A DNA stretch of 64,000 nt from a virus (IMGVR_UViG_3300045988_138952:1-64000); one strand, 5' to 3'; shown: positions 24,745 through 61,946, numbered from the stretch's first letter. Numbers and translations are program-made. Notes: generated by a model from the letters alone, not told the origin.

Positions 24745-25509
24745 CTATTTTATAGGCGAAATCTTTCTGTCAGAAGGCTTTCCGCCAAATAGATGGTTGA
24801 TGTAGGCAAGACCTTTTGGTTTGCAAAACACCTTTTGGCATAATATGTCTGGGTGGTTGTCTCTGCGTATTGGCGGCAACAGCGTCATTTCAAAGTAGCC
24901 TGCGTCAATATACTTTTGTTTCGGTTCGTTCCTGTCTTTAAAGAATATGCCCGCATCCCTTAGCTTCCCGAAAAGGGTGTTCCTCCCAAAACCGAGATTG
25001 AGTATCTTTGCGGCTTGACCTATGTCTACTTTGCCCTCTGCTTTGAAAGCGGCTTCGGCAAAATCGGCTTTAGGCTGGAGTTTGGTAATCTTTGCATCTT
25101 TCTGCTCGATTTGCTTTTGTTGCTGCTCTGTTTCAATACGGAGTTGTTCCTTTTCCTTTTCAGAAGCTACTAACGCTTCCAATGCCTCAAGATAAGTTTG
25201 TGGAGTCTTGATAACTTTTTTCTCATTTTCGAGGTATTCTAAACGGTTGATTATTCTTTCGCGCAGAACCGCATCATAACCTGATGCAAGAATAAGACAA
25301 CCTTTAGGGGTGAGATTAAAACAAGGGCTTTGCCTATTAGATTTGTCAGTGTAAGAGGTCTCCACAAAATTGTGGGCAGCTACTCCTTGTTTGAGTAAGT
25401 TCCTGATGTCTCGTAAGATAGCATCATGCCTTTTACCCGTGACCTCTGCTATTTGAAGAGAGGTCATACCTTTCTGATTTGGAATTAACTCATTCGTTGT
25501 GTCAAGCAT
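24745..25509 (-). CDS. Rha-family regulatory protein fused to KilAC/ANT domain (second antirepressor-type gene)
   Basis: MTSLQIAEVTGKRHDAILRDIRNLL (Rha-like) and AAKILNLGFGRNTLFGKLRDAGIFF..YIDAGYFEM (KilAC-like). Start moved to internal ATG 25509. Confidence 0.8.
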   Translation of the reverse strand: MLDTTNELIPNQKGMTSLQIAEVTGKRHDAILRDIRNLLKQGVAAHNFVETSYTDKSNRQSPCFNLTPKGCLILASGYDAVLRERIINRLEYLENEKKVIKTPQTYLEALEALVASEKEKEQLRIETEQQQKQIEQKDAKITKLQPKADFAEAAFKAEGKVDIGQAAKILNLGFGRNTLFGKLRDAGIFFKDRNEPKQKYIDAGYFEMTLLPPIRRDNHPDILCQKVFCKPKGLAYINHLFGGKPSDRKISPIK

Positions 25510-25525
25510 ATTATAACGAATTATG

Positions 25526-25618
25526 ATAAAAAGAAACCCTCCGTAGGTGTGCTTGACACAACATACGCAGGGCATAGAAGTCGCAGATTGTTTCCTTTCT
25601 GCCACCTTAGAGGGTTTC
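25526..25618 (-). terminator. promoter-proximal long hairpin with T5 in the antirepressor leader
   Basis: Minus strand arms GAAACCCTCTAAGGTG / CACCTACGGAGGGTTTC followed by TTTTT; ends 17 nt before ATG 25509. Confidence 0.5.
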
Positions 25619-25685
25619 CCAATATCTTGTACAAAATTTGTTCGCTTTATTTTGCCCAAGAGTTATTATGTTGTATCAAGCACCG

Positions 25686-58441: not shown

Positions 58442-58466
58442 AACCGCGTTGTGTGAACAACGCTCC

Positions 58467-58576
58467 TTCCTCTTAGCTCAGCCAGGCAGAGCATCGCTAT
58501 GGTTACTTGTTCGAAGGTTTAGTATCCGGTAATTTCCGGTTAGCGAAGGTCGCACGTTCGAGTCGTGCAGAGGGAG
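58467..58576 (+). tRNA. tRNA-like gene with a 43-nt anticodon loop region (36 nt longer than normal)
   Basis: Acceptor TTCCTCT/AGAGGGA; U8 A9; D arm GCTC-AGCCAGGCA-GAGC; anticodon stem TCGCT/AGCGA enclosing 58499-58541; variable AGGTC; T arm GCACG-TTCGAGT-CGTGC. No encoded CCA. Confidence 0.6.
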
Positions 58577-58970
58577 CAAAATACATAGTTCTTTGACGTA
58601 TTGAATGTGAAATAAGGTTTAAGTATTTGATATTTAGACTTATTTCAATATAACCGAGGATTGCGGATAGCGGAAACGCGGGGACTCCGTATAGGCTTGG
58701 TTATCGTAATTGTCTCTTCGCACCGAAATGTCCTACGGTAGAGAGTATGCGGTTTGGGCACCCGTATCGCAAGAGACAAAGGTCATAAAGACAACATAGG
58801 CGTCCGATACAGTCTTAAATCGGTATAAAGTATGCGGTGGTAATGAAAGGCGCCCGTACACGCTTATTATATATACTCCCTTCCCGTCAAATTCGGGCAC
58901 GCTGAAAGCTAAACACGTATTGTTGCATTGAAGGGAGCCAATATTTATTAATCTTTAAATATATAGAATT

Positions 58971-59261
58971 ATGATTGGGAAAAAAGTAATTATTAGAGCA
59001 GACAGAGCGGGCGTATTTTACGGAGTATTGAAAGAAAAAAATGGTAGTGAGGTTACATTGACAGACTGCCGAAGATTGTGGTGTTGGTATGGGGCTGCAT
59101 CTATCAGCCAATTAGCTGTTGAGGGAACGAAAAGACCTAATGATTGTAAATTTACATTAGTTGTACCGATAATCTCTATTTCGGGGGTTATAGAAATAAT
59201 TCCTTGTACAGATGAAGCGATAAAATCCATTGAGGAGGTAGCCGTATGGAAGAACAGATAA
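58971..59261 (+). CDS. hypothetical protein (96 aa)
   Basis: Track ORF overlapping the next start. Confidence 0.5.
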   Translation: MIGKKVIIRADRAGVFYGVLKEKNGSEVTLTDCRRLWCWYGAASISQLAVEGTKRPNDCKFTLVVPIISISGVIEIIPCTDEAIKSIEEVAVWKNR

Positions 59262-60019
59262 GAAAGTTTCTTAGTATATACTCTGGCGATGGCTCTGGCG
59301 ATGGCTATGGCTATGGCTATGGCTATGGCTATGGCGATGGCTCTGGCGATGGCTCTGGCTCTGGCTATGGCTATGGCGATGGCTCTGGCTATGGCGATGG
59401 CTCTGGCGATGGCGATGGCTCTGGCGATGGCTCTGGCGATGGCTCTGGCGATGGCTCTGGCGATGGCGATGGCTCTGGCTATGGCGATGGCTCTGGCTAT
59501 GGCGATGGCTCTGGCGATGGCTATGGCTCTGGCGATGGCTATGGCTATGGCTATGGCTATGGCGATGGAATTAAAACATTCAATGGCGACAAAGCATATA
59601 TCATTGATGATATTCCTACAATTATCAAGCATGTTCATGACAATGTAGCTAAAGGATATATACTGAACGATGACTTTACATTGACTGAGACATTTGTTGC
59701 AAAAAGGAATGGGAAATTCGCTCATGGAGAAACATTGCACGAGGCCTTTGCTTCGCTTCAAGAAAAATTGTATGACGATTCAACCGAGGAGGAAAGGTTG
59801 GAAGCTTTTAAAAAGCATTTTCAGGACTTTACTAAAAAGGTATCGGCTAAAGAATTGTTCCATTGGCATCATGTGCTGACCGGTTCGTGCAAGCAAGGAA
59901 GGCTGTCATTCTGTGCCAATAAGGGAATAGACATTGACAATGATACTTATACCGTACATGAGTTTATAGAATTAACTCAATATTCTTATGGCGGTGATAT
60001 AATCAGAAAATTGAAGTAA
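59246..60019 (+). CDS. protein with 94-residue Gly-Asp/Ser/Tyr dipeptide-repeat region and conserved-looking C-terminal domain
   Basis: GDGSGDGYGYGYGYGDGSG... then IKTFNGDKAYIIDDIPTIIKHVHDNVAKGYIL..FAHGETLHEA. Confidence 0.65.
   Translation: MEEQIRKFLSIYSGDGSGDGYGYGYGYGYGDGSGDGSGSGYGYGDGSGYGDGSGDGDGSGDGSGDGSGDGSGDGDGSGYGDGSGYGDGSGDGYGSGDGYGYGYGYGDGIKTFNGDKAYIIDDIPTIIKHVHDNVAKGYILNDDFTLTETFVAKRNGKFAHGETLHEAFASLQEKLYDDSTEEERLEAFKKHFQDFTKKVSAKELFHWHHVLTGSCKQGRLSFCANKGIDIDNDTYTVHEFIELTQYSYGGDIIRKLK
59282..59563 (+). repeat. hexanucleotide microsatellite (GGC GAT / GGC TCT / GGC TAT units)
   Basis: About 47 tandem 6-nt units; open in several frames on both strands, which generates artefactual track ORFs. 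Confidence 0.9.
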
Positions 60020-60167
60020 TATGTAATTATCCCGTGGCTCTCAATAGATGTTTGAGAGTAGTAAGGCAACCATCGGAACGCTCACGGGAACAAAAGCCTG
60101 TAAGGATGAAAATTCATGATAGCTTTTTAATGTAAACAGTCCCGTCTACGTGCTGGTCGGGAAACAC

Positions 60168-60271
60168 TGCGACATGGCGGAATGGTAGACGTAGCACTCT
60201 ATGATAGGAATGTCAAACCTTAGATGTGCGGAGCTTGACAACTCGTCCCGGTTCGAGTCCGGGTGTCGCAA
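60168..60271 (+). tRNA. type II (Leu-like) tRNA-like gene with a 28-nt anticodon loop region
   Basis: Acceptor TGCGACA/TGTCGCA; D region GCGGAATGGTAGACG; stem GCAC/GTGC enclosing 60198-60225; long variable arm GGAGCTTGACAACTCGT; T arm CCCGG-TTCGAGT-CCGGG; discriminator A. A CTTAGAT 7-mer abuts the 3' stem strand. Confidence 0.6.
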
Positions 60272-60308: not shown

Positions 60309-60339
60309 CCGGGCGGTCTGTGAAGATAGTCCGGTTTTT
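60309..60339 (+). terminator. intrinsic terminator after the tRNA-like gene
   Basis: CCGGGC..GTCCGG followed by T5. Confidence 0.55.
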
Positions 60340-60365
60340 ATTTGAAACCCATTAATAACAATTAT

Positions 60366-61382: not shown

Positions 61383-61946
61383 ATGGAACAAGAAATTTGG
61401 AAAGATATAATTGGATATGAAGGGATATATCAAATATCCAGTTTAGGTAGAGTAAAATCTGTGAGCAGATATGTAAACCATATAAATGGAGTAAGACATG
61501 TTCATAGTAAAATTTTAAAGCCTAATAGTTGTTCTCTTTATTTAAATATTAGTCTTAGTAGAAAATGTGTAATGAATAGATTCACTATACATAGGCTTGT
61601 AGCTAAAGCTTTTATTCCTAACCCTAATAATCTTCCACAAGTTAATCATAGAGACGGTAATAAATTTAATAATAAAGTAGAAAATCTTGAATGGTGTTCT
61701 TCCTCTGATAATCAAAAACACGCATATAGAATTGGGTTAAAAAAAACTCCTAATTTAGGCAGATTCGGCAGTCTAAATCATTCATCTAAAGTTATAATAC
61801 AATATAGTTTAACAGGAGTGCCAATTCAAGAATACGGAAGCACAAGAGAGGCTTCCAGAGTTACTAAAATAAATCAAGGAACTATAGCAGCATGCGCAAG
61901 AGGGGAAAGAGCATCAGCCGGTTCTTATAAATGGAGATATAAATAA
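61383..61946 (+). CDS. free-standing HNH homing endonuclease (NUMOD4 + HNH_3 type)
   Basis: WKDIIGYEGIYQISSLGRVKS; HRLVAKAFIPNP..VNHRDGNKFNNKVENLEWCSSSDN. Confidence 0.8.
   Translation: MEQEIWKDIIGYEGIYQISSLGRVKSVSRYVNHINGVRHVHSKILKPNSCSLYLNISLSRKCVMNRFTIHRLVAKAFIPNPNNLPQVNHRDGNKFNNKVENLEWCSSSDNQKHAYRIGLKKTPNLGRFGSLNHSSKVIIQYSLTGVPIQEYGSTREASRVTKINQGTIAACARGERASAGSYKWRYK

Follow-up and report, generated by a model that had tools for sequence, protein, structure and literature searches.

Two tRNA-like phage genes carry conserved inserts of 43 and 28 nucleotides in place of the anticodon loop

We analyzed a 64,000-nucleotide stretch of viral DNA (IMGVR_UViG_3300045988_138952:1-64000; hereafter the window) from a temperate phage with two tyrosine integrases. 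Two tRNA-like genes lie on its plus strand between ORFs of the early region, at 58467-58576 (gene 1) and 60168-60271 (gene 2), and they are the sole tRNA-like genes in the genome. They bracket a slot of exchanged cassettes, one of which carries a tyrosine recombinase, and a DUF6948 protein with an Sm/LSm-like fold is encoded between them. A c4-type RNA is also present in the window. Re-reading the sequence bore out the anatomy that the original prediction had given for both genes. Each has a 7-bp acceptor stem, a D arm with G18 and G19, a TΨC-type T loop and a discriminator base, but neither has the canonical anticodon arm (5-bp stem, 7-nt loop, U33 and a purine at position 37), the loops measuring 43 and 28 nt, respectively.

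Gene 1 has an Arg-type body without an encoded CCA. Its acceptor stem TTCCTCT/AGAGGGA (58467-58473/58569-58575) forms 7 bp, including one G·U, and is followed by the discriminator G at 58576. The D arm GCTC-AGCCAGGCA-GAGC (58476-58492) has GG in its loop, the variable loop is AGGTC (58547-58551), and the T arm is GCACG-TTCGAGT-CGTGC (58552-58568). The anticodon stem TCGCT/AGCGA (58494-58498/58542-58546) encloses the 43-nt insert region (58499-58541, plus strand), which we describe from its fold and from an alignment of 98 copies. In the predicted fold, an added A·T pair (58499/58541) extends the anticodon stem to 6 bp. An anticodon-loop-like heptamer, TTCCGGT (58534-58540), includes a CCGG at 58536-58539, the would-be C34 C35 G36 G37, which is predicted to pair with a second CCGG at 58526-58529. 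A leader hairpin, GCGTTGTGTGAACAACGC, lies on the plus strand 3 nt upstream of the gene (58446-58463); a terminator scan also flags a minus-strand terminator-like hairpin there.

Gene 2 has a class II Leu-type body, also without an encoded CCA. It consists of the acceptor stem TGCGACA/TGTCGCA (60168-60174/60264-60270), a Leu-type D arm GCG-GAATGGTAGA-CGT (60177-60192), a 17-nt variable arm (60230-60246), the T arm CCCGG-TTCGAGT-CCGGG (60247-60263) and the discriminator A73 (60271). The anticodon stem GCAC/GTGC (60194-60197/60226-60229) has 4 bp, or 5 if a U·U pair is counted. It encloses a 28-nt insert on the plus strand (60198-60225; fold z = -2.5, 93-copy alignment), which we call module A. 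Here UCUA (60198-60201) is predicted to pair with UAGA (60221-60224), the would-be U34 A35 G36 A37, around an inner helix UGAUA/UGUCA capped by a GGAA tetraloop (60207-60210), with AACCU as a bulge. The heptamer CTTAGAT (60219-60225) had been proposed as a proper 7-nt loop; it misses the frame of a canonical loop by one nucleotide, because the register of the covarying stem puts the nucleotide before GTGC at position 39. The two inserts are indeed dissimilar in sequence, as first reported, but they share an architecture in which the would-be anticodon and N37 are paired within the insert, so that the anticodon is masked in both predicted folds. A leader hairpin, TCCCG-N13-CGGGA, lies on the plus strand 5 nt upstream of gene 2 (60140-60162). 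Downstream, reading the same strand reveals a GC-rich hairpin followed by a T run (60309-60343), which is conserved in the 93-copy alignment and likely forms the 3' end of the transcript. The terminator scan did not call this hairpin, probably because its loop is long.

We then asked how tRNA detection tools treat the two loci. Default ARAGORN made no tRNA call on the window. With introns allowed, as the original prediction had proposed, it made exactly two calls, at the gene 1 and gene 2 loci, and none on 40 dinucleotide-shuffled versions of the window, totalling 2.56 Mb. The Rfam tRNA model (RF00005) reported neither locus, even at E ≤ 10, but covariance models that we built from ordinary phage tRNAs accepted both. 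A model of 45 tRNA-Leu genes detected gene 2 at 43.4 bits (E ∼ 1e-9) and scored 90 related scaffolds at 33-57 bits, and a model of 47 tRNA-Arg genes detected gene 1 at 24.5 bits (E ∼ 8e-5). The latter replaced a generic class-I model, whose match to gene 1 was weak (15 bits) and mis-registered. In both matches, the sole anomaly is the presence of 24 or 41 nt at 5 expected loop positions. In the gene 2 alignment, 97.8% of cells hold standard pairs, compared with 23-47% when the partners are slid. The tRNA bodies are thus intact around their anticodon regions.

Both genes, inserts included, were found in 99-107 IMG/VR contigs, and both are also intact in a prophage within a 484-kb Bacteroides scaffold (L268), more than 180 kb from either scaffold end. 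The homologous loci in related phages that had been suggested as a check therefore exist, with both genes present on ∼100 independent viral contigs. These contigs and the insert-bearing prophage rule out an assembly artefact and, as the inserts recur in 99-107 contigs, resequencing would not remove them. No insert-less copy was found among ∼110 copies of gene 1 and ∼109 of gene 2, and 1.2 Mb of related phage DNA gave 214 insert-bearing calls versus 0 uninterrupted tRNAs. Exon-exon junctions were absent from the viral collection and from the metagenome collection, the latter searched without a positive control.

Gene 1 and its leader hairpin form a near-invariant island in 98 copies, all 43 insert nucleotides included, amid highly polymorphic flanks, and every position of the insert has rare minor alleles at most. 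In gene 2, 25 of the 28 insert positions are invariant in 93 copies, and the three variable sites are a helix end, a wobble pair and a bulge. The inserts vary as little as the T arm and the tRNA core and, judged by these alignments, are under strong purifying selection. Diversity is low, with essentially two alleles per gene, so that evidence for covariation within the inserts is thin. In the surrounding helices, D-stem and anticodon-stem pairs of gene 2 vary by wobble or compensatory changes. In a second gene 1 allele, g1', a compensatory change has turned pair 31-39 from T-A into C-G; the insert of this allele, of 42-43 nt, is homologous to that of the window allele (g1) and keeps both CCGG blocks, and the g1 stem differs by a paired one-base-pair insertion. 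These compensatory changes were read directly from the sequences; an automatic count returned no double-sided changes because MAFFT misplaces indels next to the anticodon stems. Substitutions in the acceptor, D and anticodon stems preserve base pairing, which points to selection at the RNA level.

This pattern bears on whether the loci are decaying tRNA pseudogenes disrupted by insertions. Decay would account for their rejection by default tRNA finders and Rfam, and some alleles do have stem mismatches (T·C at 27-43, A·C at 29-41), while one contig holds a truncated 3' remnant only. However, decay sits badly with near-invariance in ∼100 genomes beside highly polymorphic flanks, with helices maintained by wobble and compensatory changes, and with retention of both genes in the prophage. 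Moreover, the sites that do vary, positions 16 and 20 of the D loop together with the variable loop, are known for tolerating change in tRNAs. As read from the alignments, conservation largely refutes the pseudogene explanation, which we rank as the least likely of all.

We further considered that the constraint could act on DNA, the loci being att sites, host tRNA remnants or recombinase landing pads and the inserts mere filler. tRNA genes are classic integration targets, the phage is temperate with two tyrosine integrases, and one of the cassettes exchanged in the slot between the genes carries a tyrosine recombinase. Yet the 3' halves of gene 1 and gene 2 have no match in 185,579 bacterial species genomes, and the prophage holds both genes unsplit, far from the scaffold ends, implying that attL and attR map elsewhere. 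We therefore reject an attP or host tRNA remnant, which the original prediction had named as grounds for its refutation. Both halves of each tRNA are present with their stems kept paired, arguing for RNA-level selection, and we hold a DNA-level explanation to be very improbable.

Relatives of gene 2 show that its arm is exchangeable. The whole anticodon/variable-arm module has been replaced by unrelated ones on a constant scaffold, with identical leader and trailer; the modules measure ∼28, 30, 60 and 110 nt, have different architectures and in some cases contain GNRA-capped hairpins. The upstream leader hairpin is retained whichever module type (A, B, C or D) follows, with low diversity in 93 copies. 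Module A remains unchanged while its closing stem changes. It was found solely within this scaffold, on 98 contigs of the same phage group, and the idea that the insert is a mobile element was rejected on this basis. Both loci combine an intact elbow with a non-canonical anticodon region carrying a selected or variable part, for which we use the term tRNA-like scaffold or mimic, a functional description with no curated family. The tRNA-like variant or decoy put forward in the original prediction appears to fit this modular swapping of the gene 2 arm.

A constant scaffold with a variable arm could also mean that the loci serve only as cis processing signals, a form of tRNA punctuation in which RNase P and RNase Z cut a polycistronic early transcript, the arm has drifted and expanded freely and the RNA, once excised, does nothing more. 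The acceptor/T-arm elbow is all that RNase P and RNase Z require, and this scaffold would supply it. The genes sit on the same strand between early-region ORFs and bracket the cassette-exchange slot, and RNase P matures the P1/P7 members of the class to which the c4-type RNA in the window belongs. However, drift predicts an arm that varies within a lineage, and the inserts are almost invariant, module A even staying constant while its closing stem changes. Punctuation also leaves the conserved pairing of the anticodon-like tetranucleotide unexplained, and a D arm with Leu-type identity features together with A73 exceeds what it needs. We find this explanation improbable.

We next examined whether the inserts could be introns. 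A single excision yields a canonical arm (5-bp stem, 7-nt loop, U33 and R37) in minority alleles only: g1' minus 43 nt is a flawless tRNA-Arg(CCG), and a minority gene 2 allele, g2A', minus 21 nt acquires anticodon CUA or UUA. No such arm results from one excision in the window alleles, with g1 left with a 6-bp stem or a 9-nt loop and g2A with 4 bp or a U·U pair, nor in modules B, C and D. Gene geometry does not appear to be held to a decoding standard. The in-silico spliced forms were all accepted by default ARAGORN. Rfam searches of the window inserts and of module types B, C and D (E ≤ 1-10) returned no known ribozyme or RNA family, and there was no Intron_gpI match to inserts that measure 19-43 nt, or up to ∼110 nt in relatives. 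In the predicted folds, 0-2 nt on the 5' side and 1 nt on the 3' side lie between the stem junction and the 4-bp anticodon-insert helix, so that no symmetric 3-4-3 bulge-helix-bulge (BHB) can be drawn. Pfam and PHROGs scans found no RNA ligase, splicing endonuclease (EndA/TSEN) or kinase among the phage genes tested, several tail-region and small ORFs lying outside the scan. DUF6948 was considered as machinery and set aside, as it is not specifically linked to tRNA-like genes; its partner protein had no fold match.

The main rival to our preferred explanation is that the loci encode a genuine tRNA-Arg(CCG) and a class II Leu-type tRNA, each with a short protein-spliced intron 5' of the anticodon. 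Removal would require a host or phage endonuclease and a ligase such as RtcB, with the site of cutting deciding whether gene 2 acquires a UAG, UUA or CUA anticodon. Several observations favor such introns: the bodies are complete tRNAs by covariance model, ARAGORN accepts each spliced form, g1' becomes perfectly canonical, and the anticodon-like heptamers beside the 3' stem strand are invariant. In the modelled folds, the helix between anticodon and insert recalls the A-I helix that eukaryotic pre-tRNAs form. Precedents exist in the introns of Lak megaphage tRNAs and in another phage, L161, where 71 nt are inserted at position 34/35 of a clean tRNA-Leu(UAA); the Sm/LSm-like protein encoded between the genes might be added. 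On the other hand, we know of no bacterial pathway that removes such introns, and the inserts have no BHB geometry, group I features or Rfam match. A canonical arm cannot be obtained by one excision from g1 or g2A, the dominant alleles, or from modules B, C and D, and no endonuclease, ligase or kinase was found among the phage genes scanned. Insertion position and junction motif differ between the two genes, no intron-less allele occurs anywhere in the collections searched, and the inserts are constrained like the tRNA core, unlike typical protein-spliced introns. The small intron offered in the original prediction is weakened accordingly, and we regard true short introns as possible rather than probable.

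A more specific proposal is that Bacteroides or its phages perform a protein-dependent tRNA splicing that is neither group I nor BHB, and that these genes are "pro-tRNAs." The codon-mimicking insert would mask the anticodon, and decoding would begin only after cutting and ligation, for example by an endonuclease and RtcB. Masking could allow escape from anticodon nucleases or timed decoding, possibly including stop-codon suppression, which comes into consideration because one gene 2 register gives a UUA or CUA anticodon. Recoding of stop codons in the phage is unsupported (TAA 42, TGA 13, TAG 10; coding density of 86% with the standard code). In the phage, 12% of Arg codons are CGG and 7% of Leu codons are CUA, proportions that by themselves say nothing about codon demand. 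We consider this proposal rather unlikely.

Processing substrates that release small RNAs, also suggested originally, are possible. The longest complementarity between the inserts and the phage genome is 10-11 nt, no more than for shuffled inserts, and an antisense RNA against the phage's own genes was ruled out by this chance-level complementarity.

Our preferred explanation, to which we assign a probability of roughly 0.45, is that both loci are tRNA-derived and make stable tRNA-shaped RNAs in which the anticodon arm has been rebuilt as a longer, lineage-specific hairpin module. The intact acceptor stem, D arm and T arm, along with the Leu-type variable arm and A73 of gene 2, would be recognized by the host enzymes that process tRNA ends, namely RNase P, RNase Z or exonucleases, and the CCA-adding enzyme. 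The RNAs would be cut out of the early rightward transcript, giving stable products of ∼107-113 nt. As made, these RNAs would not decode, since a codon-like tetranucleotide holds the would-be anticodon and N37 in a predicted 4-bp helix. Selection would act on the expanded arm as the functional part, which the tRNA body presents to tRNA-binding factors; the RNA would serve as a mimic of tRNA or as a scaffold and not as an adaptor in translation. We infer expression, processing by RNase P and RNase Z, stability and the candidate partners, which may be a tRNA-targeting nuclease, another protein or RNA, or LeuRS, an enzyme that does not read the anticodon.

Some observations run against the tRNA-shaped RNA explanation. 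The invariant heptamers UUCCGGU and CUUAGAU, directly 5' of the 3' stem strand, resemble good anticodon loops, and g1' turns into a faultless tRNA-Arg(CCG) once 43 nt are removed. Genuine pre-tRNA introns, too, typically pair with the anticodon. The phage uses CGG and CUA as minor codons, and phage-encoded tRNAs frequently serve codons of that sort. The clean short-insert tRNAs of L161 and Lak phages suggest that some removal pathway exists in nature. Finally, we identified neither a partner nor a target for the modules, and they are complementary to the phage genome only to the extent expected by chance.

Whichever explanation holds, the loci are common, strongly selected and experimentally tractable: the phage resides as a prophage in a culturable gut Bacteroides and has exactly two such genes. 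Should the inserts be removed, they would reveal a new bacterial or phage RNA cut-and-ligate pathway and offer an explanation for the Lak-phage introns. If they are retained, complete tRNA bodies would act as a chassis for swappable RNA modules, forming a new class of tRNA mimics with candidate functions in conflict over tRNA-targeting immunity. In either case, standard annotation (ARAGORN, tRNAscan-SE in bacterial mode, Rfam) misses such genes.

The original prediction held that inserts of this kind were undescribed in phage tRNAs. This stands for the 20-43-nt kind, which we did not find in the searchable literature, but not for phage tRNA introns as a whole. The sole precedent found in the literature on short tRNA introns or expanded anticodon arms in phages concerns Lak megaphages, whose tRNAs carry unexplained non-group-I introns of 79-114 nt at position 37/38 with a T-arm-like or tRNA-like minihelix (Devoto et al., 2019; PMC6784885). 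Both cases involve Bacteroidales gut phages, an interrupted anticodon loop, neither a group I intron nor an Rfam match, an insert that is nearly identical wherever present, and a removal mechanism that is likewise unexplained (PMC6784885). Lak phages, however, have intron-less alleles, exons that give canonical high-scoring tRNAs and ∼30 normal tRNAs (PMC6784885). The inserts described here differ in size (19-43 nt, up to ∼110 nt in relatives), position (5' of the anticodon-like triplet) and content, and are never absent. Their dominant alleles are non-canonical after excision, and the genes are the only tRNA-like ones in the genome. The resemblance is conceptual only. More broadly, similar short inserts occur in ∼1-2% of tRNA-like genes in the unrelated phages that we sampled.

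To our knowledge, bacteria are thought to interrupt tRNA genes solely with self-splicing group I introns, and short protein-spliced introns are therefore treated as an archaeal and eukaryotic hallmark. Group I introns, as in tRNA-Leu(UAA), tRNA-fMet and tRNA-Arg, share with our loci an interrupted anticodon loop in bacterial-type tRNA genes, and we found group I-type examples of ∼190 nt in two unrelated phages (L199 and L218). In contrast, a group I ribozyme core (P3-P9) takes about 200 nt or more; our inserts fall short of this by a factor of 5-10 and do not match Intron_gpI. The protein-spliced introns of archaea and eukaryotes are typically 14-100 nt and depend on proteins for removal (EndA/TSEN with RtcB or Trl1). 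Short inserts in the anticodon arm and pairing with the anticodon are common to both. The differences are that here neither junction has a 3-4-3 BHB, the insert lies 5' of the anticodon rather than at 37/38, the host is bacterial, the phage genes scanned include no EndA-like or ligase gene and the insert is strongly constrained.

tRNA-like structures also serve as processing or stability handles, as in the MALAT1 mascRNA, the gammaherpesvirus TMERs, the stable RNAs C and D of T4, the RNase P-processed c4 RNA of P1/P7 and engineered "tRNA scaffolds." By analogy, the two loci would share with these an elbow recognized by RNase P and RNase Z, a modified or cargo-bearing anticodon region, and a non-decoding product; a c4-type RNA occurs in the same phage. 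Natural handles, as far as we know, shorten the anticodon arm or append hairpins outside the tRNA, and none inserts a module into a complete tRNA that keeps synthetase-type identity features. A last comparison is with phage tRNAs that escape anticodon nucleases (T4/T5-type, PARIS, Retron-Eco7, Septu), which in the known cases do so by point substitutions while keeping a 7-nt loop and normal decoding. Like them, the genes described here are phage encoded and have an anticodon arm that departs from that of the host, and their lineage-specific variation would fit an arms race; unlike them, the loop itself is replaced by a structured module of 28-43 nt.

The two tRNA-like genes carry greatly expanded anticodon arms, and their sequence agrees with the description in the original prediction. 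Gene 1 (58467-58576, + strand) has an Arg-type body, with a 7-bp acceptor stem (TTCCTCT/AGAGGGA) and discriminator G, a D arm containing GG, a 5-bp anticodon stem (TCGCT/AGCGA) enclosing 43 nt, the variable loop AGGTC and the T arm GCACG-TTCGAGT-CGTGC. Gene 2 (60168-60271, + strand) is a class II gene with a Leu-type body: its acceptor stem is TGCGACA/TGTCGCA with A73, its 4-bp anticodon stem (GCAC/GTGC) encloses 28 nt, and a 17-nt variable arm precedes the T arm CCCGG-TTCGAGT-CCGGG. The D arm of gene 2, GCG-GAATGGTAGA-CGT, is the same sequence as in many ordinary phage tRNA-Leu genes. CCA is encoded by neither gene.

ARAGORN at default settings found no tRNA in the 64-kb window; with introns allowed, it returned exactly the two loci and nothing else, and made no call in 40 dinucleotide shuffles of the window. 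The Rfam tRNA model reported neither locus even at E<=10. The original prediction held that rejection of both genes by covariance models would count against them. Models that we trained on ordinary tRNAs from unrelated phages recognized both in unfiltered searches: the Leu model scored gene 2 at 43.4 bits (E about 1e-9), with all arms fitting and 24 nt at 5 expected loop positions, and the Arg model scored gene 1 at 24.5 bits (E about 8e-5), fitting the D arm, the UCGCU/AGCGA stem, the variable loop and the T arm, with 41 nt versus 5. A generic class-I model, too diffuse, gave gene 1 15 bits. In-silico spliced versions were all accepted by default ARAGORN.

Exact scans of IMG/VR located the 3' half of gene 2 in 107 contigs and that of gene 1 in 99, most of them carrying both genes and all from human-gut samples; GenBank phage records hold only two relatives, both unannotated and metagenomic. 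The phage is temperate and, besides two tyrosine integrases, one of which has a Bacteroidota-type Arm-DNA-bind_5 N-terminus, it encodes antirepressors, an HNH homing endonuclease, an excisionase-like HTH protein and, for recombination, a RecT/YqaJ pair. Between the two genes lies the coding sequence of a protein that shares 97% identity with one annotated in Bacteroides uniformis; identical copies of this protein occur on 200-484 kb contigs. Both tRNA-like genes are intact in the 484-kb scaffold, where more than 180 kb separates the prophage from each end. A search of 185,579 species, represented by one genome each, gave no match to either 3' half. This distribution excludes att sites and remnants of host tRNA genes, alternatives raised earlier, since both genes are intact in the prophage and their 3' halves are absent from those species; it also excludes an assembly artefact, given the 99-107 contigs and the prophage.

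Across 1.2 Mb of related phage loci, ARAGORN made 214 insert-bearing calls and none for an uninterrupted tRNA. Exon-exon junction patterns had no match in the viral collection, nor in the metagenome collection, which had no positive control. Among 98 copies of gene 1, the flanks are highly polymorphic on both sides, and the leader hairpin and the entire gene, all 43 insert positions included, are almost invariant. In 93 copies of gene 2, 25/28 insert positions are invariant and variation is concentrated at D-stem pairs 10-25 and 11-24 and anticodon-stem pairs 27-43 and 28-42, where the variants are wobble or compensatory changes; standard pairs fill 97.8% of cells versus 23-47% in slid controls. 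The minority allele g1' of gene 1 (116-117 nt, about 15 contigs) has a homologous insert of 42-43 nt and the same TTCCGGT heptamer adjoining the 3' strand; C-G replaces T-A at its pair 31-39, and the stem stays paired in its single-nucleotide variants. The minority allele A' of gene 2 has the stem ATAC/GTAT instead of GCAC/GTGC around a nearly identical insert. Together with the constant presence of the inserts, near-invariance and compensatory stem changes all but rule out pseudogenes, the least credible of all readings, and the same conservation pattern in both genes rules out neutral filler. A constraint acting at the DNA level is very improbable. Altogether, the data establish both loci as functional tRNA-shaped RNA genes under selection, in which the expanded anticodon arm is constrained as well.

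The inserts share no sequence, as originally described, yet in the predicted fold of each a codon-like tetranucleotide pairs over 4 bp with the would-be anticodon and N37, sequestering them. In gene 1, CCGG (58536-58539) pairs with CCGG (58526-58529), the latter containing the codon CGG; in gene 2, UAGA (60221-60224) pairs with UCUA (60198-60201), which contains CUA, and the arm forms an irregular 13-bp hairpin capped by a GGAA tetraloop (z = -2.5). No bulge-helix-bulge motif could be drawn at either insert, and neither showed complementarity to the phage genome beyond chance. A group I ribozyme was rejected, the inserts being far too short and matching no Rfam family.

In the main rival to the reading favoured below, and the less probable of the two, the inserts would be true short introns removed by a putative cut-and-ligate pathway from tRNAs that would then be charged. 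In its favour, the anticodon-like heptamers are invariant, the pairing resembles an A-I helix, and precedents exist in the Lak megaphages (Devoto et al., 2019; PMC6784885) and in unrelated phages such as L161. We enumerated all single contiguous excisions and kept those that left U33 and a purine at position 37 in a 7-nt loop on a 5-bp stem; solutions exist only for g1', which can yield a perfect tRNA-Arg(CCG) by loss of 43 nt directly 3' of the 5' stem strand, and for A', which yields CUA or UUA by loss of 21 nt. The window alleles have none: gene 1 gives a 6-bp stem or an 8-9-nt loop, its extra A.T pair being a paired indel relative to g1', and gene 2 gives a 4-bp stem or a U.U pair at 31-39. 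The heptamer CTTAGAT, proposed as a proper loop with anticodon UAG, is present in gene 2 but lies one nucleotide out of frame in the covarying stem register, so that the Leu(UAG) reading needs a 4-bp stem; reading in register gives a UUA anticodon. Nothing favours stop-codon recoding, and codon usage is uninformative on the need for these tRNAs. Pfam and PHROGs searches of the non-structural and most other phage genes detected neither a ligase for RNA nor a splicing endonuclease, a kinase/phosphatase or a CCA-adding enzyme. There is a realistic, if minor, chance that these genes point to a tRNA splicing route new to bacteria.

Gene 2 keeps its acceptor, D arm, T arm, leader hairpin and trailer unchanged in related phages, and on this scaffold they display unrelated modules for the anticodon and variable arm: A and A' span 28-30 nt; B, in 10 contigs, about 110 nt with GNRA-capped hairpins; C, in MT836332.1, about 60 nt; and D, in sequence L043, about 55 nt without a separate variable arm. 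Module A was never found outside the gene 2 scaffold. We favour, at a probability of roughly 0.45, a non-decoding tRNA mimic or scaffold, because it best explains the strict insert conservation, because the dominant alleles have non-canonical geometry and a paired one-base-pair indel, because architecturally unrelated modules share one scaffold, and because insert-less alleles are absent and no splicing machinery was found. Once expressed, such a gene would be processed by RNase P and RNase Z, with CCA addition, into a stable RNA of about 107-113 nt, whose expanded-arm module would be the working part and would meet putative partners. Pure processing punctuation is an improbable role. A third scaffold family is represented by a 130-nt class II tRNA-like gene with an insert (sequence L012, 4459-4588, - strand), present in one relative of this phage; its acceptor is GGATAAG/CTTATCC, its T arm is as in gene 2, and it scores 33.6 bits with the Leu model.

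The slot bracketed by gene 1 and gene 2 is a site of cassette exchange and a cargo hot spot. In the window it holds an Sm-like protein pair; in sequence L040 (6884-9331) the cassette there includes one more tyrosine recombinase, and in the prophage of the 484-kb scaffold (L268, 10808-12352) the slot holds an N6-adenine DNA methyltransferase. The window's DUF6948 (PF22253) protein (58971-59261, + strand, 96 aa) has a predicted Sm/LSm fold: the top 50 PDB matches of its AlphaFold2 model (pLDDT 84) are without exception archaeal SmAP or eukaryotic Lsm proteins, at probability 1.00 with target TM values reaching 0.73 and an rmsd near 1.9 Å, though with marginal E-values of 1e-3 to 6e-3. Gut phages and Bacteroidales MAGs contain 1,986 homologs, and the gene is not strictly linked to the tRNA-like genes. 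The protein would be a candidate phage RNA chaperone in a phylum that reportedly lacks Hfq. Its constant companion, an ORF overlapping its end (59246-60019, + strand), begins with a (GDGSGYG)n repeat that causes spurious miRNA matches in Rfam and varies in length, giving 173-259 aa across contigs; the 149-aa C-terminal domain, modelled with confidence (pLDDT 91), has no structural match in PDB.

The ~390-nt spacer after gene 1 (58577-58970, + strand) is non-coding and looks highly structured, with long-range stems and GNRA tetraloops and no Rfam match. Different contigs carry one of two unrelated ~300-nt cassettes there, each followed by a common ~70-nt hairpin element (58873-58941) that lies directly upstream of the gene 2 leader where the Sm-like pair is absent. 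TCCCG...CGGGA inverted repeats are enriched in the window, with 9 sites versus about 1 expected from shuffles (60030-60089 on the + strand, 60140-60162, 58882-58900, 4701, 6280, 11294, 11740, 46118 and 49501). The 60-nt element at 60030-60089 sits just 3' of an ORF stop and at cassette boundaries; it has conserved ends and a covarying inner hairpin (CTCTCAA/TTGAGAG versus TCCTCCA/TGGAGGG in sequence L002), and a related element takes gene 1's position in MT835900.1. The 60-nt element may be either a structured RNA or a site for attC-like recombination.

Elsewhere in the window, a c4-2 antisense-type RNA (25530-25619, - strand; RF02944, 43.7 bits against a gathering threshold of 41) and a Rha/KilAC antirepressor gene (24745-25575, - strand) overlap at the 5' end of the latter, an immunity arrangement of the P1/P7-like c4-ant type, here in a Bacteroides phage. 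The first ~100 nt of the HNH/NUMOD4 homing endonuclease gene (61383-61946, + strand) share 75-84% DNA identity with HNH genes of Enterococcus, Staphylococcus, Lactococcus and crAss-like phages, a pattern suggesting that the gene has recently moved horizontally between phyla.

In unrelated IMG/VR phages we found about 15 tRNA-like genes with 16-90 nt anticodon-arm inserts (L161, L168, L196, L212, L139, L155, L157, L184, L190, L194, L209 and L248) among about 900 normal tRNAs. The tRNA-Leu(UAA) gene of L161 is clean, encodes CCA and carries its 71-nt insert at position 34/35; two further sequences, L199 and L218, have group-I-type introns of ~190 nt. Short inserts may be a general feature of phage tRNA genes that has been under-reported. 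In the searchable literature we found neither inserts of 20-45 nt in tRNA genes of bacteria or phages nor tRNA bodies with swappable anticodon-arm modules. The present inserts fail the defining tests of both group I and bulge-helix-bulge introns. The nearest described phenomenon is the set of unexplained tRNA introns of Lak megaphages; compared with these, the inserts described here are of another size, position and content, are obligatory, and differ in how canonical their exons are.
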